From Candidatus Omnitrophota bacterium (GTDB taxonomy: Bacteria; Omnitrophota; Gorgyraeia; Zapsychrales; JANLHA01), in contig OY759724.1 of assembly GCA_963662715.1 (NCBI GenBank), positions 1,754,662-1,818,661 of the forward strand: DNA of 64,000 bases, in the 5' to 3' direction. This document shows, one piece after another, positions 1 to 16,157 of this stretch; the stretch's first letter is position 1; every line of letters starts with the position of its first letter. Made by a program: the position numbers and the translations under genes. A model generated the notes under the pieces. It was given only the letters and a program-made list of their open reading frames with translations, had not been told where the DNA came from and searched no databases.

Positions 1-1
1 A

Positions 2-256
2 GTGCAAAATGGTTTTGTTGTTTCAGATAAACCGGATATAGAAATTAGAATAACAGAGTTTAGTTTGGTAAATAAGGAGATTATTTCATTAACATTTGAT
101 ATGAGATCAGATGATACAATTTATAGAACGACACAATACCGTCCAAAGGTTGGACCAGGATATTATCAAGGTGTTTCTTATTTTAGGGCAACCCCAGGAA
201 TAGGGAAAGCTACAGATATAATTTTAGTTAGTATAATGCGTAGAATTAAACGATAA
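2..256 (+). CDS. hypothetical cassette protein, 5'-partial (runs off window start)
   Basis: Open frame from position 2, with no ATG at its start. Followed by an attC at 282-357. Confidence 0.35.
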   Translation: MQNGFVVSDKPDIEIRITEFSLVNKEIISLTFDMRSDDTIYRTTQYRPKVGPGYYQGVSYFRATPGIGKATDIILVSIMRRIKR

Positions 257-281
257 ATATGATAACTTAAAATTAAAATAA

Positions 282-357
282 TCTAACCAGTCAATCCACC
301 GGATCTGATTACGCACCTGACGGCGCTCCATCAGTCCGGTGATTTCCGGCGTTAGGT
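282..357 (+). repeat. integron attC site
   Basis: Begins atcTAACcag and ends ggcGTTAGGTg (GTTRRRY). GC-rich imperfect palindrome: ccggatctgatt...tcagtccggtgat. Confidence 0.65.
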
Positions 358-364
358 GTAATAA

Positions 365-922
365 ATGAAAAAAGAAATCGCACTAATTATATTAGCTTTA
401 ACATTAAGTAGCTGTGCCACAACTGGATTAAGTCTATCTAAAGATCAGGATTTAGCTGCAAAAGGAGACGCAGGAGGTCTAAATAATATGGGTAGCAGAT
501 ATCAGTTTGGAGATGGTGTTCCCCAAAATTATGACAAAGCAGTAATGTATTATCAAAAGGCTGTAGATGAAGGTCTGTCTCTTGCAAAGTCAAATTTAGG
601 ATATATGTATGATCTGGGGTTGGGGGTTGTAGAAAATAATGATAAAGCCATATCTTTGTACACGGAGGCGGCAAATGATGGATGTCCTAATGGCATGGTT
701 AATTTAGCAATAATGTATGCAAATGGTGATAACATTGAGCAGTCTTTTGAAAAGGCCTACTTTTGGTTAGAGATAGCTAGGTTTTATACCCAAAGGGAAT
801 CGAATATGCAAATTAAATGGAGAGCTCGAGGTTTACGAGATCAAGTAATTACAATGCTTAACTCTGAACAAATTAAAAGCATTAACAAAATGGCGCATGA
901 TTGGATAGAGGAAAACAGGTAA
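365..922 (+). CDS. Sel1-like repeat lipoprotein (cassette-encoded)
   Basis: Signal peptide plus lipobox LTLSSC. Repeated ~36-aa units of Sel1/TPR-like type (e.g. NLGYMYDLGLGVVENNDKAISLY and MVNLAIMYANG). Confidence 0.55.
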   Translation: MKKEIALIILALTLSSCATTGLSLSKDQDLAAKGDAGGLNNMGSRYQFGDGVPQNYDKAVMYYQKAVDEGLSLAKSNLGYMYDLGLGVVENNDKAISLYTEAANDGCPNGMVNLAIMYANGDNIEQSFEKAYFWLEIARFYTQRESNMQIKWRARGLRDQVITMLNSEQIKSINKMAHDWIEENR

Positions 923-952
923 ATCATATTAAAATTATAATAATTCAATAAA

Positions 953-1036
953 CACCTAACAACCGCATTCACGCGGACGCCTCGCACGCCGCAAAAAGCA
1001 GCGGCGGCTCGGCATCGGTGATGCGCAGGCGTTGTC
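953..1036 (+). repeat. integron attC site
   Basis: Begins caccTAACaaccg and ends ggcGTTGTCTgg. GC-rich palindromic arms. Confidence 0.55.
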
Positions 1037-1278
1037 TGGCTGGAGAGATTGGTGGCGGGAAATTTTACATGAGAAGCGGAGTGGCGTTTGCGTTTAAGAA
1101 ATTTGTTGTTGGTGACGAAATACAAGATGAGGATTCCAGTCAGAAATTCGAAGTGTCGTTGGAGGCGGGTGGCATCACAAAAGAGAAGAGATAAATAAAA
1201 TTGGGTTCATATTTTGAACATTGTTATTAGGAAGCATGACCCCAATTTTGGGAATGGATTTGGTTCAGCAAACAAAGC

Positions 1279-1356
1279 GTACAACAAATCACTTCAGCGG
1301 TCGCAGCTCCGGCAGCTTCGCCGCCTGCGCACGACCGCTGAGTTCTCACGTTATTT
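1279..1356 (+). repeat. integron attC site
   Basis: Begins gtaCAACAAatcacttcagcgg and ends ccgctgagttctcacGTTATTT. Same family as the attCs at 12358 and 12797 (shared core gccgcctgcgcacg.c.gctgagtt). Confidence 0.65.
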
Positions 1357-1367
1357 TTTGAAAAATT

Positions 1368-1742
1368 ATGAATAAACTTCCAGTCATAAAAGGTGAAAAG
1401 AACTATTTTCCAACAAAAGCTTTATGTCCTATCTGTAAAAAGAATAAGGTTCTAGAGCCTCATTCTATGGCAATAATTAGCGGTGGTGCTTTATTAATGA
1501 ATCGCAAGGATGATTCAGGAGGACCTTCAGGTAATTTAGAAAGCTATTTAAATTTAAGTTGGCACGGGGCACATGATGGAGGAGAAGGCGAAGACCGAGA
1601 AATTGGATTGATTATGGATATTGCACAAGATGTCAAAGGTGGGCAATTTGATTTGTATTTTTGTTCTACATCATGTTTGCGAGAATTTTTAAATTCTTGT
1701 GTTGATGAACTTGAAAAGAGAATAAGAAAAGAAAAAAAATAA
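1368..1742 (+). CDS. hypothetical Cys-rich cassette protein
   Basis: 124-aa ORF with CPIC...CSTSC cysteine pairs. Its TAA stop overlaps the start of the downstream attC (TAACAAGTCA). Confidence 0.45.
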   Translation: MNKLPVIKGEKNYFPTKALCPICKKNKVLEPHSMAIISGGALLMNRKDDSGGPSGNLESYLNLSWHGAHDGGEGEDREIGLIMDIAQDVKGGQFDLYFCSTSCLREFLNSCVDELEKRIRKEKK

Positions 1743-1749
1743 CAAGTCA

Positions 1750-3000
1750 TCCATGAAAACAGTCATCTGGTCAAGCATAAAATAGAAAGGCCAAATCATC
1801 CATTCGCGCTATATTCCCCAAAAGGACTTATGCGCACAATAGCGTATTATGACAGGGCGTGCCAATCACTACAACGGCCTTAAATATGCCAGAGTTGTTA
1901 ACAGCATCACCCATTTATACTGACCGATATTTATACTCACAGTTGTTTTTCAAAACAGCAAAAACAGATTTTAACAGCTTATGAGCAACAGCAACTATAG
2001 CGACACCGTAATCTTTTTTAGTTCGAATCTTCTGAAAATGAGTTTGTAAATATATATCACGGCGCACAGCGGTTTGAGCCGCTTCGACAAAAGCAGTGCG
2101 TAAGTATTTATTGCCATCTTTAGTAATAGGGCCTGAATAATAGCTTTGACCTGATTGATGGACACGAGGAACAATGCCGGCGTAACGGGCAAGTTTATGC
2201 GCATTCTTAAAGCGGGAGATGTCACCGATTTCAGCCAGGATGACATGAGCAAGAATAACCCCTATACCAGGGACAGTGTAGAGTAACCGAGCCTTAGAAT
2301 CGACTTTGATGTTCAGACGGAGACGAGAATCGATTTTGTAAATATGCCGGGAGAGAATATCGATAAAGGAGAGATAATCGGCAATCATGGAAGAATAAGG
2401 TTGCCGTAAGGATAATTGATTTAAGAAGAGTTTGCCGGAAACACCGAAGAGGTCGCTGAAAGAATGCTGAATACCCTGATAATCAAGGATAGCATGAATA
2501 CGATTTTTGAGGCTAGTGCGAATGGCGATCAAACGGTGGCGATACCGCATCAAAGCACGAGCATCACGATGAAAGCGGGAAACACGGTAAGCTTTGGGCA
2601 AGAGATCGGCTCTCAAGAGGTCAGCTAAAACAGAAGCAGAGATTTTATCGGTTTTAATGCGTTGTTCGGCAATAGCCTTAGTTCGCGCGGTATGAGCGAG
2701 AGAAACATCTAAGCCGGCCTCTTCAAGCAAGTCACCGAGCCAAAGGTCAAAGCCAGAGGCTTCCAGTGCGACAGAAGAGTTATGAGGAAGGGCTTTAAAA
2801 TAATTTTTCATAGCATCTTTCTGGAAGTGATATAATTTTGTTTGATCGATGCGGTTGCCATTCTGATCTTTAACGACAACATACGAATACTTTTTGTGTT
2901 GATCGATTCCGATGTAATACATACGTGCCTCCTTTCTGGAAGGTTGTGGTTTTTGGCTTAAAATCATTATACGCCTTCCAGAGGCACGTTTTCATACTAT
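1750..3000 (-). mobile_element. IS110-family insertion sequence (IS1111-attC-like), copy 1, inserted in an attC site
   Basis: A 1251-bp segment identical to 4585-4665 plus 6970-8143. It splits an attC between aacaagtca and (t)cactacagcgg. No obvious terminal inverted repeats; subterminal palindrome ctggaaggttgtgg...ccttccag. Carries a DEDD transposase. Confidence 0.8.
1915..2967 (-). CDS. IS110 family transposase (DEDD)
   Basis: 350 aa. N-terminal YYIGIDQHKK motif and C-terminal AGIVPRVHQSGQS motif are typical of IS110/IS1111 transposases. Identical copy at 7058-8110. Confidence 0.9.
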   Translation of the reverse strand: MILSQKPQPSRKEARMYYIGIDQHKKYSYVVVKDQNGNRIDQTKLYHFQKDAMKNYFKALPHNSSVALEASGFDLWLGDLLEEAGLDVSLAHTARTKAIAEQRIKTDKISASVLADLLRADLLPKAYRVSRFHRDARALMRYRHRLIAIRTSLKNRIHAILDYQGIQHSFSDLFGVSGKLFLNQLSLRQPYSSMIADYLSFIDILSRHIYKIDSRLRLNIKVDSKARLLYTVPGIGVILAHVILAEIGDISRFKNAHKLARYAGIVPRVHQSGQSYYSGPITKDGNKYLRTAFVEAAQTAVRRDIYLQTHFQKIRTKKDYGVAIVAVAHKLLKSVFAVLKNNCEYKYRSV

Positions 3001-3065
3001 CACTACAGCGGAGCCCCTCGCCACCTTCGGCAGACTCGGGACCCCGCTGAGTTCTCACGTTATAA
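3001..3065 (+). repeat. integron attC site, right portion (left 9 bp at 1741-1749; split by IS110 copy 1)
   Basis: cactacagcggagcccctcgccaccttcggcagactcgggaccccgctgagttctcacGTTATAA. Homologous to the intact attCs at 9339 and 10611. Confidence 0.7.
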
Positions 3066-3083
3066 ACAAAAATTAAAGAAAAA

Positions 3084-3761
3084 ATGTTTAAATTCAATTT
3101 CGATTTACTAAAAAAATCAAAAAATGTTCTATCCCAATATAAAAATATTTATTGGATTATCGGGGGAGCATGTTCTGGTAAATCAACCATATGTAAAACA
3201 ATTGCAAAACAAAAAAAGGCACATTTATACGATATGGATGAATATATATTTAGTAAATATATGAGCCGTTATACAAAAAAAAGACATCCTGCAAGTAAAA
3301 CATGGTTTTCGTCAAAGAACTCTCTAGATTGGGTATTATCTTTATCTTGGAAAGATTTTGATCAACTAAATAAAGCAGCCAATGCAGAATACCTGGATTT
3401 ATTTTCTGAAGATATGAAAAAGTATTCCTCTGATGATTTAATATTTGTTGATGGTGGCATCAGTTACCCTTCTGTACTAGCAAAAGCTTTTCCAATTAAG
3501 AATATTGTCTGTTTATATATTCCACCAACTCAAAGTAACATGTTATGGAACAATACTAAAGAAAGAAAACCAATGAAGGATATGATCCTAGATCTACCTC
3601 AAGGTAGAAAGAAATGGGAAAAATTCTTATTCTGTGACAAGAAGATAGCAGAAATCAGCTTGAGAGAATCTAAAAAACACAATATAAAGATATTTCGTAG
3701 AAATAATAATGTATCAATAAAACAATTATCGAAAAAAATTTTAAATTATTTTGACCTTTAA
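3084..3761 (+). CDS. P-loop NTPase / kinase-like ATP-binding protein (cassette)
   Basis: Walker A motif IIGGACSGKST near the N-terminus. 225 aa, AT-rich. Confidence 0.55.
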   Translation: MFKFNFDLLKKSKNVLSQYKNIYWIIGGACSGKSTICKTIAKQKKAHLYDMDEYIFSKYMSRYTKKRHPASKTWFSSKNSLDWVLSLSWKDFDQLNKAANAEYLDLFSEDMKKYSSDDLIFVDGGISYPSVLAKAFPIKNIVCLYIPPTQSNMLWNNTKERKPMKDMILDLPQGRKKWEKFLFCDKKIAEISLRESKKHNIKIFRRNNNVSIKQLSKKILNYFDL

Positions 3762-3770
3762 CTAAGTTTA

Positions 3771-3852
3771 TAACAACTCATTCCACCCGACCGTATTCGC
3801 GGCTTCGCCGCTCATCCGGCGGGTGAACTCGGGCTAGAAATGGGTTGAATTA
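3771..3852 (+). repeat. integron attC site
   Basis: Begins tATAACaactcattcc and ends gaaatgGGTTGAAT (GTTRRRY). GC-rich arms gcggcttcgccgc. Confidence 0.65.
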
Positions 3853-3898
3853 TACGTATAATTATGGTATACTCTATACGTATAAAGGAGGTATTAAA

Positions 3899-4147
3899 AT
3901 GGTAACAAAATTAACATTAGCTTTAGATGAAGCTGTGGTTAGAAAAGCAAAACAATATGCGAAAAAACAAAAGCTTAGCCTGTCAAAATTAGTTGAATTT
4001 TATTTCTCATCATTAGTATCTGATAATTATTCGGAACAATATAACATGCCGCCCATAACAGCAGAACTTGCAGGTATGGTCAAATCTAAATTGTTCAAAA
4101 GTGACAAGGATTTATTAACAGATACCTTGATAGAGAAATATGTATGA
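3899..4147 (+). CDS. type II antitoxin (VapB-like, ribbon-helix-helix-type), cassette-encoded
   Basis: Small 83-aa protein (MVTKLTLALDEAVVRKAKQYAKKQKLSLSKLVEFYF). It overlaps the downstream PIN-domain gene by 4 bp (ATGA). Start chosen at the internal ATG after a GGAGG-like RBS. Confidence 0.5.
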   Translation: MVTKLTLALDEAVVRKAKQYAKKQKLSLSKLVEFYFSSLVSDNYSEQYNMPPITAELAGMVKSKLFKSDKDLLTDTLIEKYV

Positions 4148-4563
4148 AAAATAAAATATTTATTGATACAGACATTTTTTTGGACACAATTCTTGATAGA
4201 AAACCGCATTCGAATTATTCAAATAGAATAATAAGCCTTTGTGAACAAAATGAAATTCAAGGATTTACATCTAGTCTTGTTATTGCAAACATTTATTACA
4301 TCTTAAATAAGTTGTCGAGCCACAACAAAGCCCTTCAAGCAATTAATAAGATTCGAGCTATAATTAATATCCTTCCCTTTACTGATAAAGAAATTGGTGA
4401 ATCAATTAATGCCGATTTCCAAGACTTCGAAGACGGCGTTCAGTATTTCATTGCGATTAACAATAAGGTAGACAGAATAATTACACGAAATGTTAAAGAT
4501 TTTAAAAAGGCCTCAATAGGGATATTGACTCCTAAAGAGTTCCTGCAATCAATAAATACGTAA
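4144..4563 (+). CDS. PIN-domain toxin (VapC-like)
   Basis: 139 aa. N-terminal IFIDTDIFLD acidic motif typical of the PIN fold. Translationally coupled to the upstream small gene. Confidence 0.6.
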   Translation: MKNKIFIDTDIFLDTILDRKPHSNYSNRIISLCEQNEIQGFTSSLVIANIYYILNKLSSHNKALQAINKIRAIINILPFTDKEIGESINADFQDFEDGVQYFIAINNKVDRIITRNVKDFKKASIGILTPKEFLQSINT

Positions 4564-4679
4564 TTATTAATGCATAACAAGTCATCCATGAAAACAGTCA
4601 TCTGGTCAAGCATAAAATAGAAAGGCCAAATCATCCATTCGCGCTATATTCCCCAAAAGGACTTATGTAATGACCCTAG

Positions 4680-5447
4680 TTAAGCAAGGATTTTTTTGTG
4701 TAGATCGAGTTCTTTGTTAATCCATCTTTTGTAAAACTCTTCAGGCGTAGCGAAGAATAATGCCTGATGAGGGAAATCGGTGTTGTAATCGTTGATCCAA
4801 CGCTTGAAGTCATCTTGAAGATCAAATGGGTTGTCCCATTCATTGATCCAAATGAAATCTTCTTTGATTCTGCGGATGACGCGTTCGGTGTCAGCATTGC
4901 CTTTGGGGTTGGACCAGGTTGAGAAGATCTGCTTGATGCCGGCCAGTGAACAATTAAGCCTGAAGCGCCCGCTGGTGGGCTGACAGCCATTGTCCGAGAT
5001 CAGGTGCAGGTCATGATTCAGTGTGTCTTTGATGCCGTTTGGGAATCGGTTGTTGATGGCCATTTCCAGGGCATCCAGCCAGTCATCAGTCTTTGACTGG
5101 ATGTTGAGGCTATAGCCGATAATTTCTTTGGTATACCAGTCTAGGACGATGGTCAGATAGAACCAGCCCCAGGTCGCCAGTTTGATTTTTGTCATATCGA
5201 TACCCCAGAATTGATTGGGGTGAGAAGCTCGTGGTTTCCGGCGGAGGTTGCCACGCTTGGCCTTCAAGCGATCGTTGGGTTGAACCGTTAATTGATTTTC
5301 TTGCATGAGGCGTTGGACACAATTTTTGCCAATTTTGTAATGTTTACGGTTGTTTAAATAGGCCCAGACTGAACGGTATCCCCAGAGGGGATGTTGCTTT
5401 TTAATTTGTCGGATTTTGACTAAATGTTTTTGGTCTTGTTCGATACG
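4680..5447 (-). pseudogene. IS3 orfB of the outer copy, separated from its own orfA by the inner insertion
   Basis: Identical to orfB at 5466-6257 but lacking the first ~6 codons, which continue at 6602 onward. Confidence 0.7.
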
Positions 5448-5465
5448 CTTTTGTAATGACCCTAG

Positions 5466-6257
5466 TTAAGCAAGGATTTTTTTGTGTAGATCGAGTTCTT
5501 TGTTAATCCATCTTTTGTAAAACTCTTCAGGCGTAGCGAAGAATAATGCCTGATGAGGGAAATCGGTGTTGTAATCGTTGATCCAACGCTTGAAGTCATC
5601 TTGAAGATCAAATGGGTTGTCCCATTCATTGATCCAAATGAAATCTTCTTTGATTCTGCGGATGACGCGTTCGGTGTCAGCATTGCCTTTGGGGTTGGAC
5701 CAGGTTGAGAAGATCTGCTTGATGCCGGCCAGTGAACAATTAAGCCTGAAGCGCCCGCTGGTGGGCTGACAGCCATTGTCCGAGATCAGGTGCAGGTCAT
5801 GATTCAGTGTGTCTTTGATGCCGTTTGGGAATCGGTTGTTGATGGCCATTTCCAGGGCATCCAGCCAGTCATCAGTCTTTGACTGGATGTTGAGGCTATA
5901 GCCGATAATTTCTTTGGTATACCAGTCTAGGACGATGGTCAGATAGAACCAGCCCCAGGTCGCCAGTTTGATTTTTGTCATATCGATACCCCAGAATTGA
6001 TTGGGGTGAGAAGCTCGTGGTTTCCGGCGGAGGTTGCCACGCTTGGCCTTCAAGCGATCGTTGGGTTGAACCGTTAATTGATTTTCTTGCATGAGGCGTT
6101 GGACACAATTTTTGCCAATTTTGTAATGTTTACGGTTGTTTAAATAGGCCCAGACTGAACGGTATCCCCAGAGGGGATGTTGCTTTTTAATTTGTCGGAT
6201 TTTGACTAAATGTTTTTGGTCTTGTTCGATACGCTTTAGAGAACGGCGTCTTTTCAT
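5466..6257 (-). CDS. IS3 family transposase OrfB (DDE integrase core)
   Basis: 263 aa. Matches the rve-type DDE region (WGIDMTKIK...LISDNGCQ...). Overlaps orfA by 4 bp. Confidence 0.85.
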   Translation of the reverse strand: MKRRRSLKRIEQDQKHLVKIRQIKKQHPLWGYRSVWAYLNNRKHYKIGKNCVQRLMQENQLTVQPNDRLKAKRGNLRRKPRASHPNQFWGIDMTKIKLATWGWFYLTIVLDWYTKEIIGYSLNIQSKTDDWLDALEMAINNRFPNGIKDTLNHDLHLISDNGCQPTSGRFRLNCSLAGIKQIFSTWSNPKGNADTERVIRRIKEDFIWINEWDNPFDLQDDFKRWINDYNTDFPHQALFFATPEEFYKRWINKELDLHKKILA

Positions 6258-6559
6258 AACTCGTACTCGTTTTTTTTTAGTTCAACGGTCAAGTCGCCGA
6301 TGATGCGTTTGAGTTTGGCGTTTTCTTTTTCAAGACGTTGCTCTTTCTGGGACTGTTGTTTGATGTCAAAGGCCATATGGCATTCTTTGAGGAACTGGTC
6401 GCGCCATTTGTAATATTGGGTTTGGCCAATTTGGTATTTGTTACAAAGTTTACTGATGTCGATTTTCCCGCTGAGGCCTTCAAGCACGATTTGGGTCTTT
6501 TGTTGGCTGGTCCATTGGCGTTTTTTCATGGGAATTGGGCTCCTTTCCTTGGAACTCAA
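6254..6559 (-). CDS. IS3 family transposase OrfA (HTH)
   Basis: 101 aa. HTH followed by a leucine-zipper-like C-terminus, typical of IS3 OrfA. Confidence 0.85.
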   Translation of the reverse strand: MSSKERSPIPMKKRQWTSQQKTQIVLEGLSGKIDISKLCNKYQIGQTQYYKWRDQFLKECHMAFDIKQQSQKEQRLEKENAKLKRIIGDLTVELKKNEYEL

Positions 6560-6621
6560 TTCTACACCATTTGTTTAAATTTGTTAACTAGGGTCACTAT
6601 ACTTTAGAGAACGGCGTCTTT

Positions 6622-9282: not shown

Positions 9283-9338
9283 AAGAAATAGATAAAAAAT
9301 AAAAGAATATAGATTAAGCAAACTTTGCGCACAACAAG

Positions 9339-9416: not shown

Positions 9417-9439
9417 TATAATTATGATATAATGACCTT

Positions 9440-9628
9440 ATGAAAATTAATAAACAAATAGTAACATTAAAGAAAATCACTCAACAGGACGACTGTTTTG
9501 TCGACACTTCTCCTCAAGAAAGGGTATTATTTGTTTGGGAGCTAACGGCAGAATTGTGGTCTTTGAAAGGCAAGGAACATGTTGAACGAAGACTACAAAG
9601 AGATATTACAAATCTTATTAAAAAATGA
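9440..9628 (+). CDS. small hypothetical protein, possible partner of the downstream nucleotidyltransferase
   Basis: 62-aa ORF overlapping the next gene's start. Sits in the same cassette. Confidence 0.3.
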   Translation: MKINKQIVTLKKITQQDDCFVDTSPQERVLFVWELTAELWSLKGKEHVERRLQRDITNLIKK

Positions 9629-10022
9629 TGTTCAATTTCTTGTTGTGGGCGCATATGCAATGGCTGCTTATGGATATCCTAGGGCAACAGGTGATTTTGA
9701 TATTTGGGTAGAATCCTCAATAGAAAATTCAGAAAATATTTATAAATCATTGCTTGAATTTGGAACTCCATTGACAGGAATAACTAAAGATACATTTTCA
9801 GAAGATGGGCTTGTTTTTCAGATCGGAGTTGCGCCCAGAAGAATAGATATTATAACAGGTATTGATGGGGTTAATTTTGAGGATGCGTTTAAGGATAAAG
9901 AAGGTATTGAGGTCGAGGGTTTAAAATTGCCTTTTATATCGAAAGAGAACTTAATAAAAAATAAAAAGGCTACAGGCAGAGAAAAAGATAGATTAGATAT
10001 TAAATATTTAGAAGATAAATAA
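9579..10022 (+). CDS. nucleotidyltransferase-fold protein (MNT/DUF6036-like)
   Basis: GAYAMAAYG...GDFDIW motif (G-S/x then DxD) of minimal nucleotidyltransferases. 147 aa. Confidence 0.5.
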   Translation: MLNEDYKEILQILLKNDVQFLVVGAYAMAAYGYPRATGDFDIWVESSIENSENIYKSLLEFGTPLTGITKDTFSEDGLVFQIGVAPRRIDIITGIDGVNFEDAFKDKEGIEVEGLKLPFISKENLIKNKKATGREKDRLDIKYLEDK

Positions 10023-10024
10023 AT

Positions 10025-10102
10025 CGTCTAACAAGGCAATTAAGCGGCACAAGCTCGCACCTTTTGGCGCTCGCTTACGCCGTTTATTTTTTTGCGTTAC
10101 TC
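10025..10102 (+). repeat. integron attC site
   Basis: Begins cgTCTAACaagg and ends tttgcGTTACTC. Arms gcacaagctcgcacc/ggcgctcgcttacgcc. Confidence 0.55.
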
Positions 10103-10127
10103 TGAGCGTATTAATCGGGAAAATACT

Positions 10128-10604
10128 ATGGCTTCAACTGATAATGAATTTGTGATTGGTGCAACAATAGTTAAGTATGGCCTTTTTGAGTCTGCCGTTG
10201 CGGAGAAAAAGAAGAATGAAGGACTTCCATACTCATCATACGAAGAAAAAGCAACAATAATGCATTTACAAACCACAGATATTATTAAGGGAAAGATCGG
10301 GATAGAATTTGGTATATCATATGTTGTTAATTCAGTAAATCAGATTCATCTTATGGCTGAGAATCAATCTATTGAAATAAAAACAGTAGTGATATATCCG
10401 AGTCCGGGTATCAGAGATGTTGAAAATAATAAGATTTATCATGATTCAATAACATATAGAGATGTTCCTATGGATGCTGAAGTGTATGAAGGTTATTTTA
10501 TCGGTGGTGAGACAGATATTGTGGCCGGAGAATGGACATTTCAAATATGGCATAACGATCACAAGTTGGCAGAAAAAATATTTGATATTACAAAAGATAA
10601 ATAA
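10128..10604 (+). CDS. hypothetical cassette protein
   Basis: 158-aa ORF from an internal ATG after the attC. No recognisable motifs. Confidence 0.4.
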   Translation: MASTDNEFVIGATIVKYGLFESAVAEKKKNEGLPYSSYEEKATIMHLQTTDIIKGKIGIEFGISYVVNSVNQIHLMAENQSIEIKTVVIYPSPGIRDVENNKIYHDSITYRDVPMDAEVYEGYFIGGETDIVAGEWTFQIWHNDHKLAEKIFDITKDK

Positions 10605-10610
10605 GACAAC

Positions 10611-10677
10611 ATCTAACAAGTCACTCTGGCGGCACCGTTGGCAGGCTCGGGACCCCGCTGAGTTCGTTGCGTTGGAT
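10611..10677 (+). repeat. integron attC site
   Basis: ATCTAACAAGTCACTctggcggcaccgttggcaggctcgggaccccgctgagttcgttgcGTTGGAT. Confidence 0.75.
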
Positions 10678-10688
10678 TGGAAAAGAGA

Positions 10689-11171
10689 ATGTATTGTCCA
10701 GATGATGGTTTGAAATTAAATCGACTTGAAAGAAATGGCATTGAAATTTATGAATGCACCGAATGCGGGGGGCTTTGGACTCCCGTCAGAGCGATTGATT
10801 ATAAAAATACTTTAATTGACCATAAAGGTAGCAGTGATTTGTTGTGCCTTTCCTGTCAAGAACCAATGAATGAAAAAATATACAGAAGTTATCAAATAAT
10901 TGTATGTGAAGACTGTCAATATGCCTGGATTGGCGGGACAATCATTAAATCCTTATTTGTTAAAACTGATAAAGCAGAAATAAGAGCAAATGATAATTGT
11001 TTAACAGATGCTTTGGGGGCATTTAAAGAAGGACTGCCTCAATGGGTGATGGAGATCTTTGTGAATTTGCCGGATAAAGAAACATTGAATGCTCTGGCAG
11101 AAATTGCAGGAGAAGCGGGAGAAACGGTCGTGGAATTTTTTGCGTTTTTGTTTTCTGATATATCTAATTAA
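10689..11171 (+). CDS. zinc-ribbon hypothetical protein (cassette)
   Basis: CPDDG..CTECGG and CLSC...CEDC cysteine pairs. ATG at 10689. The TAA stop overlaps the attC start TAACAAG. Confidence 0.45.
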   Translation: MYCPDDGLKLNRLERNGIEIYECTECGGLWTPVRAIDYKNTLIDHKGSSDLLCLSCQEPMNEKIYRSYQIIVCEDCQYAWIGGTIIKSLFVKTDKAEIRANDNCLTDALGAFKEGLPQWVMEIFVNLPDKETLNALAEIAGEAGETVVEFFAFLFSDISN

Positions 11172-11257
11172 CAAGACATCCAACCATTCCCTGCGGCGTG
11201 GGCCCGGCCCCCTGCGGCTTCGTCAGGGGCCGATGAGTTCCTGGCGCTATGTTTAAA
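11167..11257 (+). repeat. integron attC site
   Basis: Begins atTAACAAGacatcc and ends cgtcaggggccgatgagttcctggcgctatGTTTAAA. Same family as the attCs at 13821 and 16066. Confidence 0.65.
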
Positions 11258-11265
11258 ATTCAAAA

Positions 11266-11643
11266 ATGACTAGCTTTAATAGAACCAAATGGATTTTGTT
11301 AATATCAATCGCGACCTTATTTGTAGGTGTCGTGCCTGTATATTTGAACAGAAGCATTGCTTCAAAATATCCTGTGTGGGAATCGGGTTGTTTTCAATAT
11401 CAAAATAACCACAAAATTGAGCCCGTATCTGAATACTGCGATTTACCAGCAGGCGAGAGGCGTTTATTATTGTTGGGAGAATTAATAAAAAGAGAGTGTT
11501 CCGAGTTATTATTTTACGCATATATATTTTTTGGTATAGCCGCTGTGGTTTTAAGGAAATTTAAATTTTTCTTTTTCCCGGTAATAATACATTTAATTCT
11601 TTGCTTGGTGATTTTATTAATATTTGGAAACATAGGAATTTGA
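11266..11643 (+). CDS. hypothetical membrane protein (cassette)
   Basis: Three hydrophobic helices. 125 aa. Confidence 0.4.
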   Translation: MTSFNRTKWILLISIATLFVGVVPVYLNRSIASKYPVWESGCFQYQNNHKIEPVSEYCDLPAGERRLLLLGELIKRECSELLFYAYIFFGIAAVVLRKFKFFFFPVIIHLILCLVILLIFGNIGI

Positions 11644-11660
11644 TTTTAGAAAAATTAAAA

Positions 11661-11721
11661 ACATAACAACTCCCTGTGGCGGCCCTTGCTCCGGTGGCTG
11701 CGCCGTTGAGTATGGTTTGTT
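11661..11721 (+). repeat. integron attC site
   Basis: Begins ACATAACaactccctgtggcggccc and ends ggctgcgccgttgagtatgGTTTGTT. Confidence 0.55.
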
Positions 11722-11731
11722 GTGCCAGAAA

Positions 11732-12355
11732 ATGAAAGAAAAAACATTTAAGCTTTTAACATTTTCCTCGCTTGCTATAACAGTCATCTCTTCTGCATTT
11801 TTGATCCATCGCATAAGATATGCTTTCTGGGGGATCAAAATAATTCCCATCCGAAATATCCTGAATGATAAAGAAATCCTTTTTATTAATTGCTGTCTTG
11901 ATTTTATCCTTTCTTTGCCTTTGTCGATGCTTGTCTCTTATTTTCTCTTGCTGAAAATTGATTCCTTAATTCCTGAAACTTGTCAGGATTTTCTTAAGCG
12001 TTTTCAGCGGCATACTCCTTACGGCGTAGTTAAGAGAAACGACCCGGAACTATTTAAAATTGCCGGTTCAAAATCTCCAGCCAGAGGTGTGCTTGAAATA
12101 TCGGCCGGATTAATTGTTTTGGCTGTGTTTATCGCGTGTGAAGCTTTTGCTTACTACGCAAGATATGAGATCCTCGGGATACCTTTTATTTCAGCCGGAG
12201 CCGGTGTGCAGCCAGCAATCAATTCATTAATCAATTTTATAATATCGATACCATTTTTGGGTGTAGTGGCTTTTTTGTTGATAAAACTTATTAAGTTGTT
12301 CGAAAAAATTTTAGGGGAAAGTATTATTGATTTTTATTCAACCATATTACGATAA
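11732..12355 (+). CDS. hypothetical polytopic membrane protein (cassette)
   Basis: Multiple hydrophobic segments. Internal ATG at 11732 used as start. Confidence 0.4.
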   Translation: MKEKTFKLLTFSSLAITVISSAFLIHRIRYAFWGIKIIPIRNILNDKEILFINCCLDFILSLPLSMLVSYFLLLKIDSLIPETCQDFLKRFQRHTPYGVVKRNDPELFKIAGSKSPARGVLEISAGLIVLAVFIACEAFAYYARYEILGIPFISAGAGVQPAINSLINFIISIPFLGVVAFLLIKLIKLFEKILGESIIDFYSTILR

Positions 12356-12357
12356 AA

Positions 12358-12431
12358 GCGCAACATCAGGTTCAGCATGGCGCGGGGAAACTTCGCCGCC
12401 TGCGCATGGCCGCTGAGTTGTCGCGTTACGT
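12358..12431 (+). repeat. integron attC site
   Basis: GCGCAACatcaggttcagcatggcgcggggaaacttcgccgcctgcgcatggccgctgagttgtcgcGTTACGT. Confidence 0.7.
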
Positions 12432-12472
12432 GAAAGATGGAATCTCCCCGTTAAAAAATTGAGGTCACCAGA

Positions 12473-12742
12473 ATGAGAAAAAAAGAAAGCAATCCAAAAG
12501 AGGACAAACTTAAAGGGACTGTAAATGCTGGGTACAAGATCATTGCCGTTAAAGAGGCCCCGATGAAGTACCCCATCCCACTTGTCCCTGCGGAAAGTAT
12601 TGTCTTAGCAAAACGCGTGAACAATTCGGCCCCAACCAATTACGTGGTATGGGAGTATGTTGGCCATGGCGAATTCAGGTCTGGTATTTACGAAGATAAT
12701 AGGGCGGAAGCAGAGAATATTTTTAATTCACAAACAAAATAA
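12473..12742 (+). CDS. hypothetical cassette protein
   Basis: 89-aa ORF with a GGTCACC-like RBS region upstream. Confidence 0.4.
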   Translation: MRKKESNPKEDKLKGTVNAGYKIIAVKEAPMKYPIPLVPAESIVLAKRVNNSAPTNYVVWEYVGHGEFRSGIYEDNRAEAENIFNSQTK

Positions 12743-12796
12743 GACTGTATGTATCTCAAATATTCGTTGAACATGTGGAATAAATATAACAAAAAC

Positions 12797-12863
12797 ACGC
12801 AACAACCTGCTCCTGCAGCCACTGCTCCGGCCTGCGCACGGCTGCTGAGTTCTTACGTTAGGA
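12797..12863 (+). repeat. integron attC site
   Basis: ACGCAACaacctgctcctgcagccactgctccggcctgcgcacggctgctgagttcttacGTTAGGA. Confidence 0.7.
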
Positions 12864-12905
12864 GAAGAGATTGAGTGTATATCGGAATTTAATGATGCAA
12901 GTGGC

Positions 12906-13262
12906 ATGTGCACGTTCACTGTCACCGGTAAGGTCCGTAGTCCCGAGGATGGGTATGAACTTCAATGCCGCGCAAACCAGGTCTCTATCCAGCATGAATG
13001 CCGTTTCTTTCTCATCGACATGAGACAGGCCGAGATAATAACTAAAACGATGCCTGCATTCGAAACGGCAAAAGTGAAGGATGAGTTCCGCCAGGAACTC
13101 CGAAAGCATAAGACGGCAGTGCTTTATTCAAGACTTGCAGAACATGAGCGCTTCTTTGAAACTGTTGCGGTGAACAGTGGTTTCACGCTCAAAGTGTTTG
13201 ACAGGTATGATGAAGCCGTTGAGTGGCTTGCAAAAGATTGTATCTCGGTCAACAGTGTGTGA
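12906..13262 (+). CDS. hypothetical protein, paralog of 13913-14296 (STAS/SpoIIAA-like?)
   Basis: Shares a C-terminal block with 13913-14296: ...AVLYS....E..FFE.VAVN.GF.L.VFD..DE...WL. Confidence 0.45.
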   Translation: MCTFTVTGKVRSPEDGYELQCRANQVSIQHECRFFLIDMRQAEIITKTMPAFETAKVKDEFRQELRKHKTAVLYSRLAEHERFFETVAVNSGFTLKVFDRYDEAVEWLAKDCISVNSV

Positions 13263-13269
13263 AAAAAAC

Positions 13270-13331
13270 GCCTCACAAAATTTGTGCTGGAACGCCGGCA
13301 AGCCGGCTTCGGTGAGCCGCGCCGTTTTGGA
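13270..13331 (+). repeat. probable integron attC site (degenerate)
   Basis: Begins cctCACAAAATTTGTGctgg and ends ccgcgccGTTTTGG. Arms gccggcaagccggc. Confidence 0.45.
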
Positions 13332-13405
13332 ATAAAGACGGAAAAGATGCATAAAAATAAAATTTTGCGGACGAAGTCCAGAATAAGACAAGAAAGGGAC
13401 ATGTT

Positions 13406-13792
13406 ATGACAAAAATACCGGAAGAAGTTAAAGTCGCAATAGATAAAACAAGCCCTATATGTGTGGCCACAGTGAATAATGAATATGTGCCGAATATAAT
13501 ATATGTCACTTTTTTAAAATATATAAATGACACGACAGTGGTTATAGCAGATAATAAACTTGTAAAAACAAAAAATAATATATTATCTAATTCCAACCTT
13601 TCCTTTGTTGTCCTTGATCCTGAAACAAAAAAGTCATATCAATTAAAAGGGGAAACGGAATATATACAAGAAGGGGAGAAATATCAAGATGTTTTTAACT
13701 GGGTGCAAGAAAGAAGACCGGATCTCCGCCCCAAAGGTGCTTTGTATGTAACTATCAACGAAATATTCTCCGGAGACAAGAAAATAGCCTGA
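13406..13792 (+). CDS. pyridoxamine 5'-phosphate oxidase-like (split-barrel, FMN-binding family) protein
   Basis: N-terminal pattern ...SPICVATVNNEYVPNIIYVTF...VVIADN...K... resembles the PNPOx-like/general stress protein 26 family. 128 aa. Confidence 0.45.
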   Translation: MTKIPEEVKVAIDKTSPICVATVNNEYVPNIIYVTFLKYINDTTVVIADNKLVKTKNNILSNSNLSFVVLDPETKKSYQLKGETEYIQEGEKYQDVFNWVQERRPDLRPKGALYVTINEIFSGDKKIA

Positions 13793-13820
13793 GAATTGGC
13801 TTGAAGTTTTGAAATTGGAT

Positions 13821-13904
13821 CAAAACACATGAGAAGTCGCTCTGTCGTCCCTGTCTCGTCACGTTGCGGCTTCGTCAGGGGCCGATGAGCTCCTTGCGTT
13901 AAGA
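13821..13904 (+). repeat. integron attC site
   Basis: Ends ...ggcttcgtcaggggccgatgagctccttgcGTTAAGA. Family of the attC at 11167. Confidence 0.6.
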
Positions 13905-13912
13905 GAATTAGC

Positions 13913-14296
13913 ATGCACTACACATATGAGTTAGACAACGACAGTGGCATTTGTATCGTTCGCGTGACGGACACGTTCAAGCGTCCGGAGGATGCTGCGG
14001 AGATGCAGCAACTTGTGTGCAAGCTCTATGAAGAGACCGGGTGTGGGGCTTTTCTGTTTGACATGCGGAGGGTCGATGTCGTTGCCAGTGTTTTATTCAC
14101 ATATGATACCGTCGTGTTCGAAGCTGCAAAGTTACATGTGCTTCGGAAGCTGAAGGCAGCTGTTTTGTATTCGGAAGTTACCGAAGAGGAATGTTTTTTT
14201 GAAAATGTGGCGGTGAATCGCGGGTTCCCGTTGCGTGTTTTCGACAGTCTTGACGATTCGCTTGACTGGTTAAGCGGGAAGGGTGGGCGCACCTAA
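13913..14296 (+). CDS. hypothetical protein, paralog of 12906-13262
   Basis: Shares ~40% of positions with 12906-13262 over the C-terminal 60 aa (AVLYSEVTEEECFFENVAVNRGFPLRVFDSLDDSLDWL). Confidence 0.45.
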   Translation: MHYTYELDNDSGICIVRVTDTFKRPEDAAEMQQLVCKLYEETGCGAFLFDMRRVDVVASVLFTYDTVVFEAAKLHVLRKLKAAVLYSEVTEEECFFENVAVNRGFPLRVFDSLDDSLDWLSGKGGRT

Positions 14297-14300
14297 AATA

Positions 14301-14382
14301 TCCAACAACTCATTCCAATGTGGCGTTCCACCTGGCGGTGTCGGTAGCCTTAGGCCCCCGCCGGGTGCTTTGCGCGTAGAGG
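14301..14382 (+). repeat. integron attC site (variant core GTAGAGG)
   Basis: Begins aTCCAACAactcattcc. Arms ccacctggcggtgtcggtagccttaggcccccgccgggtg. Ends ctttgcgcGTAGAGG. Confidence 0.5.
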
Positions 14383-14387
14383 GAATT

Positions 14388-14669
14388 ATGAAAAGCATAA
14401 AGATTGTGGGCACATCTATTGTGATATTGACTGTTCTTGGCGGTGTTTGTGTGGCTCAGACAGAATGCGAGAAAGCAAAAGGGGAGATAGTAAAAATAAA
14501 AGAATGTGACGGGTCTGAAAGCGAATGGTGTGTCATTTCAGAGAAAGAACAATGTTATGCGGATCAGGTGAAGAACGGCAGATGCACTGCCGGGAAATAT
14601 TCAGAAAAGTATAAAGGGATTGTAGGAATCAGCCCCCGGGTGCTTTGTGATAACTTTGATGGTCAATAA
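14388..14669 (+). CDS. secreted Cys-rich hypothetical protein
   Basis: Signal-peptide-like N-terminus (MKSIKIVGTSIVILTVLGGVCVA) and 8 cysteines. Internal ATG used as start. Confidence 0.4.
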   Translation: MKSIKIVGTSIVILTVLGGVCVAQTECEKAKGEIVKIKECDGSESEWCVISEKEQCYADQVKNGRCTAGKYSEKYKGIVGISPRVLCDNFDGQ

Positions 14670-14686
14670 AATAAGGGGAGAAGACA

Positions 14687-14929
14687 ATGGATAAAATTTG
14701 TATTGCCTGCGGAATGCCGATGAAAAACAGGGAAGATTATGCCGCCGGAGATATTAACAAAAGTTATTGTAAATTTTGCTGTCGTTCAGACGGTTCAATG
14801 CAAAGTTATGATGAAAAAATGGATTCCATGAGCAATTTTATAAGTAGAACAAAAAAAATAAATTATGAAGCTGCGAGAGACCTGGCCAGGAAGGTGATGG
14901 CTGATCTTCCGGCGTGGAAGGATCATTGA
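14687..14929 (+). CDS. zinc-ribbon hypothetical protein (same cassette as 14388-14669)
   Basis: CIACGMP...CKFCC motif. Only 17 bp from the upstream ORF, with no attC between them. Confidence 0.4.
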   Translation: MDKICIACGMPMKNREDYAAGDINKSYCKFCCRSDGSMQSYDEKMDSMSNFISRTKKINYEAARDLARKVMADLPAWKDH

Positions 14930-14957
14930 GGCCCCGCGGAGTCCCTTGCGTCAGATA
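14930..14957 (+). repeat. truncated or degenerate attC (right half only)
   Basis: gaggccccgcggagtcccttgcGTCAGAT matches the right arm of the attC at 15552-15644 (gaggcccgcggaggtccttgcGTTAGGA). No recognisable left arm. Confidence 0.45.
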
Positions 14958-14962
14958 ACAGA

Positions 14963-15556
14963 ATGAAAAGAATATTAACTGTAATGCTCGCGACATGTTT
15001 GATTTCCTGCCACACAAACAAATTATATGAAAAATATCCGGAAAGAACGCCCAGAGATCCCGCATGGGCAAAAGCAATTGAATTGGAGGGCGTTCCTAAT
15101 TTTTATAAAGTGTCGGATGACCTTTATCGCAGCGCGCAGCCTTCTGCCGAAGGGATGAGAAATTTAGAAAAGTTGGGGATAAAAACTGTCGTTAATCTAA
15201 GAGCATTTCATTCTGACAGCCGCAAGCTTGAGGGAACTCATCTGCAATATAAACGAATATACATGAAGAACTGGCATCCTGAAATGGAAGATATCGCCAG
15301 ATTTTTTAAGGTAATGTTGGATTCCAGGAATACTCCCGTGCTCATTCATTGCGAACAGGGCGCTGACCGGACAGGAATGATTGCCGCCATGTACCGTGTT
15401 CTTGTTCAAGGATGGTCACAGGAGGAAGCTTTGGAAGAAATGAAGTGGGGCGGTTTTGGAGCGCATAAAATATGGATACACTTGCCCCCTTGGATTAAGA
15501 ATTTGGATATCGATGAATTAAAAGAAGAAATTCAAGAAGAAATCAAAGATGATTAA
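14963..15556 (+). CDS. protein-tyrosine / dual-specificity phosphatase-like lipoprotein (CX5R)
   Basis: Lipobox LISC. Active-site signature HCEQGADRTG (HCx5R). 197 aa. Confidence 0.6.
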   Translation: MKRILTVMLATCLISCHTNKLYEKYPERTPRDPAWAKAIELEGVPNFYKVSDDLYRSAQPSAEGMRNLEKLGIKTVVNLRAFHSDSRKLEGTHLQYKRIYMKNWHPEMEDIARFFKVMLDSRNTPVLIHCEQGADRTGMIAAMYRVLVQGWSQEEALEEMKWGGFGAHKIWIHLPPWIKNLDIDELKEEIQEEIKDD

Positions 15557-15644
15557 CAGCTGACAAATCCCTGCCGCGGGTCAGCCTGCACCGCCGACGC
15601 CACCGTTGGCAGCCTCGAGGCCCGCGGAGGTCCTTGCGTTAGGA
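15552..15644 (+). repeat. integron attC site
   Basis: ATTAACAgctgacaaatccctgccgcgggtcagcctgcaccgccgacgccaccgttggcagcctcgaggcccgcggaggtccttgcGTTAGGA. Confidence 0.65.
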
Positions 15645-15647
15645 GAG

Positions 15648-16064
15648 ATGATGAAAAGAATTTTTATATTAATATTATTCATTGCGACTTCATGGATTGT
15701 CCCGGCGCAGGGAAGTGTCTTCCCGGGAATAAAAGAAGAAGATGCTGCGAAATTGGCAGAAGGCCTGTCGGAAATTTCGAATGATGCAACGTACGGATTT
15801 GACTCTTCCAATCCCATTCAAGTGGGAGGAGGCCCTTCTAATGAAAGAAAATATTTGATGATGATATGTGGCCCTGAAGGGCAAGACTTGAGCTTCTCGA
15901 GAATTGGCAGTTTTGGCGGCTTTGAAGTTATTGTCGATGGGTATATGGTTTCCTATGACGGGATCGAGGAGCCGGTTATTCTTTATGTTGATATGTATAA
16001 TTACGTTAATCCCAAAGCGCCAAAAGGTTTCCGTATCAAGGATAAATATAAAAAAGTAAAATAA
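15648..16064 (+). CDS. secreted hypothetical protein (last cassette)
   Basis: Signal peptide MMKRIFILILFIATSWIVPAQG. Internal ATG at 15648. Confidence 0.4.
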   Translation: MMKRIFILILFIATSWIVPAQGSVFPGIKEEDAAKLAEGLSEISNDATYGFDSSNPIQVGGGPSNERKYLMMICGPEGQDLSFSRIGSFGGFEVIVDGYMVSYDGIEEPVILYVDMYNYVNPKAPKGFRIKDKYKKVK

Positions 16065-16065
16065 T

Positions 16066-16145
16066 GACTCCTAAGGAGGCGCTTTGTCGTCCCCGCCTCG
16101 CCACAGTGCGGTTTCGGCAGGGGCCGATGAGGACATCTGTTTTAA
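16066..16145 (+). repeat. integron attC site (last in window)
   Basis: ...cgctttgtcgtccccgcctcgccacagtgcggtttcggcaggggccgatgaggacatctGTTTTAA. Family of the attCs at 11167 and 13821. Confidence 0.55.
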
Positions 16146-16157
16146 CTTCGAGGCTTT

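Follow-up and report, generated by a model that had tools for sequence, protein, structure and literature searches.

The first 16,145 nucleotides of the 64-kb stretch of DNA analyzed here (hereafter, the window) raise the question of whether a run of small genes separated by GC-rich palindromes is an integron cassette array and, if so, what kind of integron it belongs to. Integron arrays are a classic bacterial gene-capture system. Approximately 25 small, co-directional open reading frames (ORFs) lie on the + strand of positions 1-16145, and a hairpin site follows each ORF or ORF pair, which bears out a first-pass annotation of the window that had called this region a co-directional cassette array. 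As argued below, what is seen here is in all likelihood the distal portion of a cassette array that belongs to a chromosomal integron, and the identification of its palindromes as attC recombination sites is supported by their structure, their covariation, and their distribution.

Ends and Bottom-Strand Fold of the Palindromes

The ends of an attC site were taken to be two inverted cores, R'' (RYYYAAC) and R' (GTTRRRY), which bound an imperfect palindrome of 57-141 nt. Nineteen full sites (a01-a17, a19, and a20) were mapped in the array, with lengths of 65-87 nt and a GC content of 0.48-0.69, in addition to a truncated remnant at 14930-14956. Their top-strand consensus reads ...YTAACAAnTCA... 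at one end and ...CCGnTGAGTTCCTTGCGTTAG at the other, and thus the RYYYAAC- and GTTRRRY-type ends that the first-pass annotation had read stand. The AAC triplet is present in R'' of 16 of the 19 sites and the GTT triplet in R' of 16, with 13 sites possessing both. Degenerate R' triplets are GCT in a05 and a11 (3833-3839 and 11246-11252) and GTA in a17 (14376-14382), while those of R'' are GAG in a16, GAC in a19, and AAG in a20.

Minimum free energy folds of the bottom strands gave the expected hairpins, with the unpaired bases mainly or wholly on the 3' arm in a04, a06, and a07. When eight bottom strands were aligned, RNAalifold returned a 6-bp R box, a 6x4 internal loop, an L box with a 1x2 asymmetric bulge, and an inner stem. 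The canonical attC fold, which consists of an R box, an unpaired spacer, an L box with extrahelical bases on the R''/L'' arm, and a variable hairpin, is therefore found on the − strand, as the first-pass annotation had anticipated in proposing that the bottom strands be folded. RNAalifold on a MAFFT alignment of all 19 sites gave no structure, because the variable hairpins misalign.

GC-rich stem-loops situated directly after stop codons might also be ordinary intrinsic terminators that end a run of small, horizontally acquired genes. However, the stem arms of 25-35 nt, the conserved AAC/GTT ends, and the asymmetric bulges are all unlike terminators, most of the hairpins are not followed by a T-tract, and both the sequence and the structure of the sites are homologous to those of bona fide attC. 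Terminators are therefore an explanation to which we attach almost no credence.

Covariance Models and Covariation

The eight aligned bottom strands were used to construct a covariance model, R1, from which two iterated models, R2 and the broader R3, were obtained. At E<0.01, R1 identified 13 sites in the window, all in one orientation (on the − strand, with the cassettes on the + strand) and all within 279-15646. Four of these sites, a19, a05, a11, and a16, lay outside the training set, and two are the right halves of sites split by an insertion sequence (IS). The same 13 sites were recovered by R2 and R3, now at E<=1e-8. In the remainder of the window, 16151-64000, there was no significant model match on either strand, the best having an E-value of ~0.9-2.2.

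Covariation was assessed in an alignment of 24 sites from the window, from related loci, and from two classical attC, which was fitted to the model and hence favors structure somewhat. In this alignment, 83.9% of cells were paired as compared to 70.4% upon shuffling (0/500), and only 31-47% were paired when the partners were slid relative to one another. The alignment contains 51 double-sided changes, and compensatory changes occur in seven of the ten L-box pairs.

Controls against Known attC Sites and Related Integrons

Although R2 contains only repeats from the window, it recognized classical attC sites. In 20 kb of class 1 integron plasmids (R100 and pFBAOT6), its sole significant matches were the aadA2 attC (E 9.6e-9) and the aadA1 attC (E 5.4e-7), both on the strand expected for bottom strands; the IntI1 query sequence with which the plasmids were chosen matched class 1 integrons at 100% identity. 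Furthermore, R box, spacer, L box, and 1x2 bulge are in register between the aligned arms of the window sites and those of the aadA1 and aadA2 attC.

Related metagenomic contigs were reached via homologues of the transposase from an IS in the window. R2 also matches attC sites that lie beside integron-integrase genes on these contigs, namely L094 (E 7e-14 and 3e-13), L096, L097, and L005-L010, including L007, and the attC sites of the related contigs score 55-57 bits with the window-trained model. The layout of L007 is a 457-aa tyrosine recombinase gene, a divergent pilin-like cassette, and then an attC split by a homologue of the window IS. This integrase contains the IntI-specific patch (ALSKKYVNAAKEWRWQYVFP...TDPRTGKIRRHH), and its relatives are annotated as 'integron integrase [Candidatus Omnitrophota bacterium]' (NCBI, JGI). 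Site a01 closely resembles the L094 attC sites that adjoin intI and belongs to the same sequence family, which is shared more widely with the Omnitrophota-type integrons (L007 and L094-L097; IntI P0241, P0242, and P0245). The R2 matches beside integrases and the likeness of a01 to the L094 sites together indicate that this attC type is used by a defined IntI clade. In these Omnitrophota-type loci, intI is divergent from the first cassette and adjoins core genes, as expected for chromosomal integrons, whereas the window holds the distal array only.

A separate feature of these loci is that the cassettes nearest intI in L005-L008 and L094 (for example, L007 1662-2198 and L094 775-1392) recurrently encode pilin-like proteins of the prepilin type (N_methyl/PilW_C), an unusual function. 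A 23-nt pattern of the attC family gave a single match among genome contigs, in Streptomyces sp. NPDC127177 (L004, 1233-1255), but this locus lacks an attC-model match and most likely arose by chance in a high-GC genome; in metagenome contigs, the pattern had no match.

These results bear on a further possibility, that the palindromes are repetitive extragenic palindromic (REP) sequences or miniature inverted-repeat transposable elements (MITEs), which would be spread genome-wide, have nothing to do with integrons, and merely cluster here. Short, GC-rich, imperfect, intergenic palindromes would suit such elements, and elements of the IS1111 family, to which an IS of this array belongs, are also known to target REP sequences (ISPa11; PMC11187229). 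Yet there are no copies on either strand of the other 48 kb, in keeping with the initial view of the repeats as integron-specific. Moreover, the sites share one orientation without exception, a single site accompanies each ORF or ORF pair, the window-trained model recovers both the aadA1/aadA2 attC and attC beside intI, and the covariation fits the R/L-box geometry that is specific to attC. The REP/MITE explanation is effectively refuted and is, in our estimation, very improbable.

Chromosomal Setting of the Array

The array is open at the left edge of the window, and its last attC stops at 16145. An SGNH/GDSL hydrolase gene (16158-17417) begins 12 nt past this point, which agrees with the boundary drawn in the first-pass annotation. 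Site spacing stays below 4 kb on one strand throughout, with one site per short ORF or ORF pair, and the only exception, a gap of 4.3 kb from a05 to the right half of a06, was made by IS insertions. The GC content is 0.32-0.49 in successive segments of the array, as opposed to ~0.43-0.53 in the downstream chromosome. Every large ORF in 16-64 kb lies on the + strand, among them core genes for a MurA/EPSP-type transferase, MreB, RodA, RluD, a purine/uridine phosphorylase, FHA and trypsin-like proteins, and PilM.

Over the whole window the GC skew is positive, and from these 64 kb of skew the + strand would be the leading strand and the attC bottom strands would lie on the template for it. The same holds for 25 of 30 sedentary integrons, and this orientation goes with lower excision and with larger arrays (PMC5371416). 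Eight core proteins encoded within 36739-61096, including MreB, RodA, and the MurA-type transferase, are singletons at 90% identity among ~15 billion proteins. Judged by these proteins, the host lineage is isolated and has no close sequenced relatives, while the similarity of the IS, the IntI clade, and the attC sites points to relatives that are Omnitrophota-like.

Sedentary Integron or Orphan Array

An integron has been classed as sedentary if it has >19 attC sites or is present in 100% of a species' genomes, and high similarity among its attC sites is a tendency rather than a strict criterion (Cury et al. 2016, PMC4889954). The tally here is borderline, with 13 robust sites, five weak sites, one site identified by eye, and one remnant, in an array that is cut at position 1. 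The median pairwise identity among the sites is 56% and the maximum 86%, with values of 77-86% occurring only within the trio a04/a06/a08. The sites therefore lack the high similarity of typical sedentary arrays, and the 'three or four near-identical attC families' of the first-pass annotation were overstated. Its reading of the integron as sedentary rather than mobile is nevertheless very probably right, but by virtue of the chromosomal context and the number of sites, on which the label sedentary now rests, and not by near-identity of the families.

Much else in the array is shared with sedentary integrons, such as the superintegron of Vibrio cholerae and those of Xanthomonas, and with attC clusters that have no integron integrase (CALINs), in the sense of IntegronFinder (Cury et al. 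2016, PMC4889954). Common to all are co-directional, promoter-less cassettes ended by attC, the R''/L''/L'/R' geometry, and a bottom strand with extrahelical bases. The array further resembles them in being chromosomal, in having a toxin-antitoxin cassette among cassettes of mostly unknown function, and in the position of its bottom strands on the inferred leading-strand template. Conversely, its attC sites are far more heterogeneous than the VCR sites of Vibrio, several of them are degenerate or IS-disrupted, and integrase and attI were not observed in the window.

Several of these observations weigh against the interpretation of the region as an integron array and have to be set beside the evidence for it. 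No intI, attI, or Pc promoter was seen in the window. The array is not found next to the SGNH hydrolase gene in relatives whose hydrolase is 58-64% identical, and a conserved chromosomal position is thus unsupported. The median attC identity is low in comparison with classic large sedentary integrons such as that of Vibrio. All of the attC models were trained on the window's own repeats, and six of the 19 full sites (a02, a07, a12, a15, a17, and a20) are individually non-significant in every model. Lastly, a05 and a11 score strongly yet have no GTT cleavage triplet, and they may be dead.

With regard to the weak sites, R3, which was made to rescue all six, brought no gain. However, four of the 11 weak R3 matches fall exactly on the intervals and the strand predicted in advance from the ORF map, which make up ~0.4% of the search space. 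For this reason the sites were accepted as degenerate attC, and this is their probable nature. A strict scan that combined the motif with the fold (R''/R' complementarity >=6/7) found just two of the sites, together with two background loci; as the R-box complementarity in this array is often just AAC/GTT, the scan was too strict.

On the content of the window, the array is formally a CALIN, since it contains at least two attC sites with no integron integrase nearby on the 3' side or within the window, but it very probably belongs to a sedentary chromosomal integron. The first-pass annotation was correct in reporting no tyrosine recombinase: neither tblastn with five IntI queries (best E 0.41) nor Pfam detected an integrase gene or pseudogene in the 64 kb. 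Given the orientation of the cassettes, the place to expect intI and attI is upstream of position 1, and we lean towards a complete integron with intI in that position.

The alternative within this interpretation is an orphan array, either the relic of a former integron or a piece that was split off by rearrangement or by an IS, in which case its 5' end would have no integrase and the genome perhaps none either. The absence of intI or an intI pseudogene from the 64 kb would follow from it, and the array bears signs of decay in its degenerate R'/R'' triplets, its truncated site, and its two IS-destroyed sites. CALINs are common, and some have 114 sites (PMC4889954). A weaker point in the same direction is that the source contig is absent from the best 120 of at least 8000 matches to the L007 integrase. 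Conversely, only 6.6% of CALINs exceed 10 sites (PMC4889954), as compared to at least 19 here with the 5' end still open, the cassette orientation places any intI beyond position 1, where the window stops, and related lineages have intI adjoining arrays of the same attC type. An orphan array is accordingly a serious contender, though one that we favor somewhat less than a complete integron.

Cassette Content and Other Features of the Window

The features of the array are listed in Table 1. Most cassette genes have no assigned function; the others include a toxin-antitoxin pair, a GNAT protein, zinc-ribbon proteins, and one pair of paralogous cassettes, and this content is typical of chromosomal integrons. 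Resistance genes and Tn402- or Tn7-type modules are absent from the array. Two of the two-gene cassettes, 3845-4563 and 9440-10022, are probably of the toxin-antitoxin type, and the cassette at 14383-14956 consists of two ORFs and a dead site. The cassettes with a mutated R' triplet (a05, a11, and a17) are probably fixed and non-excisable, to judge from those triplets. Approximately 4.8 kb of the array region is insertion sequence, which was overlooked when the region was first described as cassettes alone.

Table 1. Positions of the cassettes, attC sites, and insertion sequences of the array in the window. CM, covariance model; R1, R2, and R3, the three models described in the text; TSD, target-site duplication; tnp, transposase gene.
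Feature	Position	Strand	Evidence or remark
Partial cassette ORF	2-256	+	Precedes a01
attC a01 (ATCTAAC...GTTAGGT)	281-357	+	CM E 4e-16, 7e-17, 8.5e-17
Cassette ORF, Sel1-repeat protein, 185 aa	365-922	+	Pfam PF08238, E 1e-25
attC a02 (ACCTAAC...GTTGTCT), weak	954-1037	+	CM E 7-9 at predicted interval and strand; hand-read R box, L box with bulged base
attC a03 (GTACAAC...GTTATTT)	1279-1356	+	Best CM match, E 9e-21
Cassette ORF, 124 aa, weak zinc-finger match	1368-1742	+	TAA stop overlaps R'' of a04
attC a04, IS-split	1737-3065	+	R'' and spacer 1737-1749; L''...R' 3003-3065, CM E 3e-11 to 3e-14
IS1111-type IS copy 1, 1253 bp	1750-3002	-	tnp 2967-1915; Pfam PF01548 and PF02371
Cassette ORF, P-loop kinase-like, 225 aa	3084-3761	+	Weak Pfam AAA_28/SKI
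attC a05 (TTATAAC...GCTAGAA)	3768-3839	+	R1 E 0.0017 (outside training set); R3 E 1.7e-10
Probable toxin-antitoxin cassette: DUF6364 antitoxin-like (3845-4147) and PIN_3 toxin (4144-4563)	3845-4563	+	Pfam E 2e-20, 5e-23
attC a06, IS-split (R' GTTGGCC)	4572-8207	+	Left part 4572-4584; right part 8146-8207, CM E 1.5e-9 to 9e-14
IS1111-type IS copy 2, interrupted at 4666-6969	4585-8145	-	tnp 8110-7058; 100% identical to copy 1 outside nested insertion
Outer IS3-family element, 1150 bp	4666-6969	-	TSD CTTA 4662-4665/6970-6973; Pfam rve/HTH_21/HTH_Tnp_1
Inner intact IS3-family copy, 1150 bp	5452-6601	-	orfA 6559-6254, orfB 6257-5466; TSD CTTT 5448-5451/6602-6605
Cassette ORF, GNAT acetyltransferase-like, 245 aa	8211-8948	+	Pfam PF00583/PF13508; GC 0.49, above other cassettes
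attC a07 (CAACAAC...GTTGTGC), weak	8965-9030	+	CM E 1.2-5 at predicted interval; fold with R box and L stem with three bulges, all on 3' arm
Cassette ORF, zinc-ribbon protein, 85 aa	9025-9282	+	Pfam
attC a08 (GCACAAC...GTTAGAC), intact	9329-9406	+	CM E 8e-18; L'' ACTACAGCG as in IS-occupied sites
Two-ORF cassette: 62-aa ORF overlapping DUF2204 nucleotidyltransferase-like ORF (9579-10022)	9440-10022	+	Weak Pfam E 0.0016
attC a09 (GTCTAAC...GTTACTC)	10026-10102	+	CM E 3e-15
Cassette ORF, DUF3859, 170 aa	10092-10604	+	Pfam
attC a10 (ATCTAAC...GTTGGAT)	10611-10677	+	CM E 1e-14; also found in independent motif-plus-fold scan
Cassette ORF, zinc-ribbon protein, 164 aa	10677-11171	+	Pfam PF13453, E 3e-9
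attC a11 (ATCCAAC...GCTATGT)	11178-11252	+	R1 E 0.007 (outside training set); R3 E 1e-10
Cassette ORF, predicted membrane protein, no family, 125 aa	11266-11643	+	
attC a12 (ACATAAC...GTTGTGC), weak	11661-11725	+	CM E 0.9-1.3 at predicted interval
Cassette ORF, membrane protein, no family, 212 aa	11717-12355	+	
attC a13 (GCGCAAC...GTTACGT)	12358-12431	+	CM E 1e-13
Cassette ORF, no family, 89 aa	12473-12742	+	
attC a14 (ACGCAAC...GTTAGGA)	12797-12863	+	CM E 1e-14
Cassette ORF, STAS/SpoIIAA-like, 118 aa	12906-13262	+	Paralogue of 13913-14296 (39% identity, E 7e-27)
Possible degenerate attC a15 (AAAAAAC...GTTTTGG)	13263-13330	+	By eye only; no match from any of the three models
Cassette ORF, pyridoxamine-phosphate-oxidase-like, 128 aa	13406-13792	+	Pfam PF01243, E 1e-12; sits between the two STAS-like paralogues
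attC a16 (degenerate R'' ACATGAG...GTTAAGA)	13827-13904	+	R1 E 0.0098 (outside training set); R3 E 2e-12
Cassette ORF, STAS-like paralogue, 127 aa	13913-14296	+	
attC a17 (ATCCAAC...GTAGAGG), weak	14300-14382	+	Only R2, E 7.2, at predicted interval
Two ORFs: secreted small protein, 128 aa, and Zn_ribbon_2 protein (14687-14929)	14283-14929	+	Pfam PF12674, E 1e-15
Truncated attC remnant, L'-R' half only (GGCCCCGCGGAGTCCCTTGCGTCAGAT), R' GTCAGAT	14930-14956	+	74% identity to 3' end of a19; abuts stop of Zn_ribbon_2 ORF
Cassette ORF, dual-specificity/tyrosine phosphatase, 197 aa	14963-15556	+	Pfam PF03162, E 8e-18
attC a19 (degenerate R'' AGCTGAC...GTTAGGA)	15558-15644	+	R1 E 7e-6 (outside training set); R3 E 7e-13
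Last cassette ORF, secreted, no family, 152 aa as called	15606-16064	+	Start probably ATG near 15651
Terminal attC a20 (degenerate R'' TCCTAAG...GTTTTAA), weak	16069-16145	+	CM E 0.048 (R2), 0.17 (R3), at predicted interval and strand; 71-80% identical to a16

Far downstream of the array, a cyclic di-GMP-I riboswitch (58746-58840, 57.7 bits), which is the sole Rfam match in the window, precedes a type IV pilin-like gene (59093-59485; N-terminal MNKKGFTLVEIMIVVAIIALLAAIAIP) by ~250 nt; pilM (60044-61096) comes next. The position of the riboswitch suggests that pilus expression is controlled by cyclic di-GMP.

Insertion Sequences that Target attC

Two identical elements of the IS110/IS1111 family interrupt a04 and a06. 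In both sites the break falls at one and the same base, AACAAGTCA^CTACAGCG, which lies six bases 3' of the R'' AAC, and the transposase runs antisense to the cassettes. In published descriptions of the IS1111 family, tnp is followed by a long non-coding region, and the inverted repeats are subterminal (PMC11187229). Both features are present here, along with a DEDD transposase (PF01548 and PF02371): in copy 1, the non-coding region downstream of the tnp stop spans 1914-1750, as compared to 35 nt upstream of the gene, and 8-bp subterminal inverted repeats (ATGAAAAC/GTTTTCAT) lie 3 and 7 nt from the ends of the IS. In the intact site a08, the R''-spacer-L'' sequence is identical to that of both occupied sites, AACAAGTCA|CTACAGCG, which makes a08 a potential next, still empty, target. 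Copy 2 contains an IS3-family element that is itself interrupted by an identical copy, and the clean 4-bp duplications, CTTA and CTTT, indicate that this arose by real nested transposition and not by misassembly. It would follow that both IS-occupied attC sites have been inactivated, and that homologous recombination could remove the cassettes between the direct IS copies (3003-4584).

Homologues with at least 62% transposase identity occupy the same attC position in the same orientation in at least eight loci (L005, L007, L009, L011, L014, L015, L016, and L017), and thus the same IS lineage is found at the same attC position in the Omnitrophota-type integrons and in the window. Together with those of the window, the related insertions amount to ten independent events, all at ...TAACAANNCA^ and all with tnp antisense, whereas IS relatives at 43-53% transposase identity have unrelated flanks. 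The dominant L'' differs between the two sets of targets, being AATCCAGCGG in the Omnitrophota-type loci and ACTACAGCGG in the IS-occupied sites of the window.

The non-coding region of these elements contains three segments that match or vary with their surroundings. Segment 1, just past the tnp stop, reads GUUAACAAnnC and is the reverse complement of the 3' target flank (R'' core and spacer). Segment 2, ~30 nt further on, reads GUUG-UAGU-GAUU in the window and GUUG-GAUU-GAUU in the relatives, and corresponds to the 5' target flank plus the IS end. Its core, UAGU as opposed to GAUU, changes in step with the attC targets, in that the L'' is CTGTAGT in the window and CTGGATT in the relatives, and L016 has GGAGU against GGAAT. 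Segment 3, AUGGAUGA or AUAGAUGA, covaries with the right end of the IS (CATGGA|TGA or CATAGA|TGA). In the RNAalifold structure, both target-matching segments lie between stems that are conserved, GGGUG/CACCC and GCC/GGC, and three pairs are compensatory. On the strength of these matches, the IS most likely finds attC by means of a seekRNA-like guide encoded downstream of tnp.

A group of attC-targeting IS1111 elements that includes ISPa21, ISPst6, and ISKpn4 was reportedly described by Tetu and Holmes in 2008 and by Post and Hall in 2009. The window IS has in common with this group the DEDD transposase, the downstream non-coding region, the subterminal inverted repeats, and two non-coding, guide-like segments that match both target strands. 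Where the published accounts deal with insertion sites, they place IS1111-attC elements near the 5' end of attC and antisense to the cassettes (PMC3001079; PMC11187229), and as far as those accounts go, this site- and orientation-specificity is likewise shared. Targeting by seekRNA has been demonstrated experimentally for ISKpn4 and ISPst6 (PMC11187229). In contrast to that group, however, the nearest plasmid relatives of the window IS are not from Pseudomonas or Klebsiella, but are IS110-family transposases from Rhizobium and Haloarcula that are just 38% identical. The window IS lineage is therefore probably a separate clade, as judged from plasmid-borne IS110-family matches rather than from the sequences of ISPa21, ISPst6, and ISKpn4 themselves.

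Proposed Working of the Array

If the array operates as integrons do, IntI, a tyrosine recombinase, would bind the folded bottom strands and cut within the AAC of the bottom-strand R' box. Recombination between two attC sites would excise cassettes as circles, which could then be reinserted at attI beside intI. The Pc promoter would express the first cassettes, such that the distal, promoter-less cassettes found in the window would constitute a mostly silent reservoir, and the PIN_3/DUF6364 toxin-antitoxin cassette would help to stabilize the array. The mutated core triplets, the one truncated site, and the two IS-split sites may reflect age and partial immobilization.

Significance

The array belongs to a well-known kind of element, and it adds an example from a lineage without close sequenced relatives. 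The usual resistance genes are all absent from its ~25 cassette genes, most of which have no known function. That a model trained on environmental attC still recognizes the attC of clinical aadA cassettes implies that the folded-strand architecture is strongly conserved. The most interesting detail is the attC-targeting, apparently RNA-guided IS, which also has a known precedent, and neither the array nor the IS overturns current understanding. The ten independent IS insertions at one attC position nevertheless provide a natural data set on the retargeting of seekRNA or bridge RNA and on the immobilization of cassettes by IS.

Taken together, these observations raise a more specific possibility, for and against which we consider the case to be about evenly balanced: that a large sedentary integron, with this array as its distal part, resides in an Omnitrophota-like bacterium of isolated phylogenetic position, and that RNA-guided IS1111-type elements of a clade not described before are colonizing the array, elements in which the target loop of the seekRNA appears to have been naturally reprogrammed (a UAGU rather than a GAUU core) to follow the local attC L''. 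If this is true, the guide RNAs of the IS and the recombination sites of integrons would co-diversify, and for a programmable recombinase that recognizes attC, the loci described here would supply a series of naturally occurring guide/target pairs.

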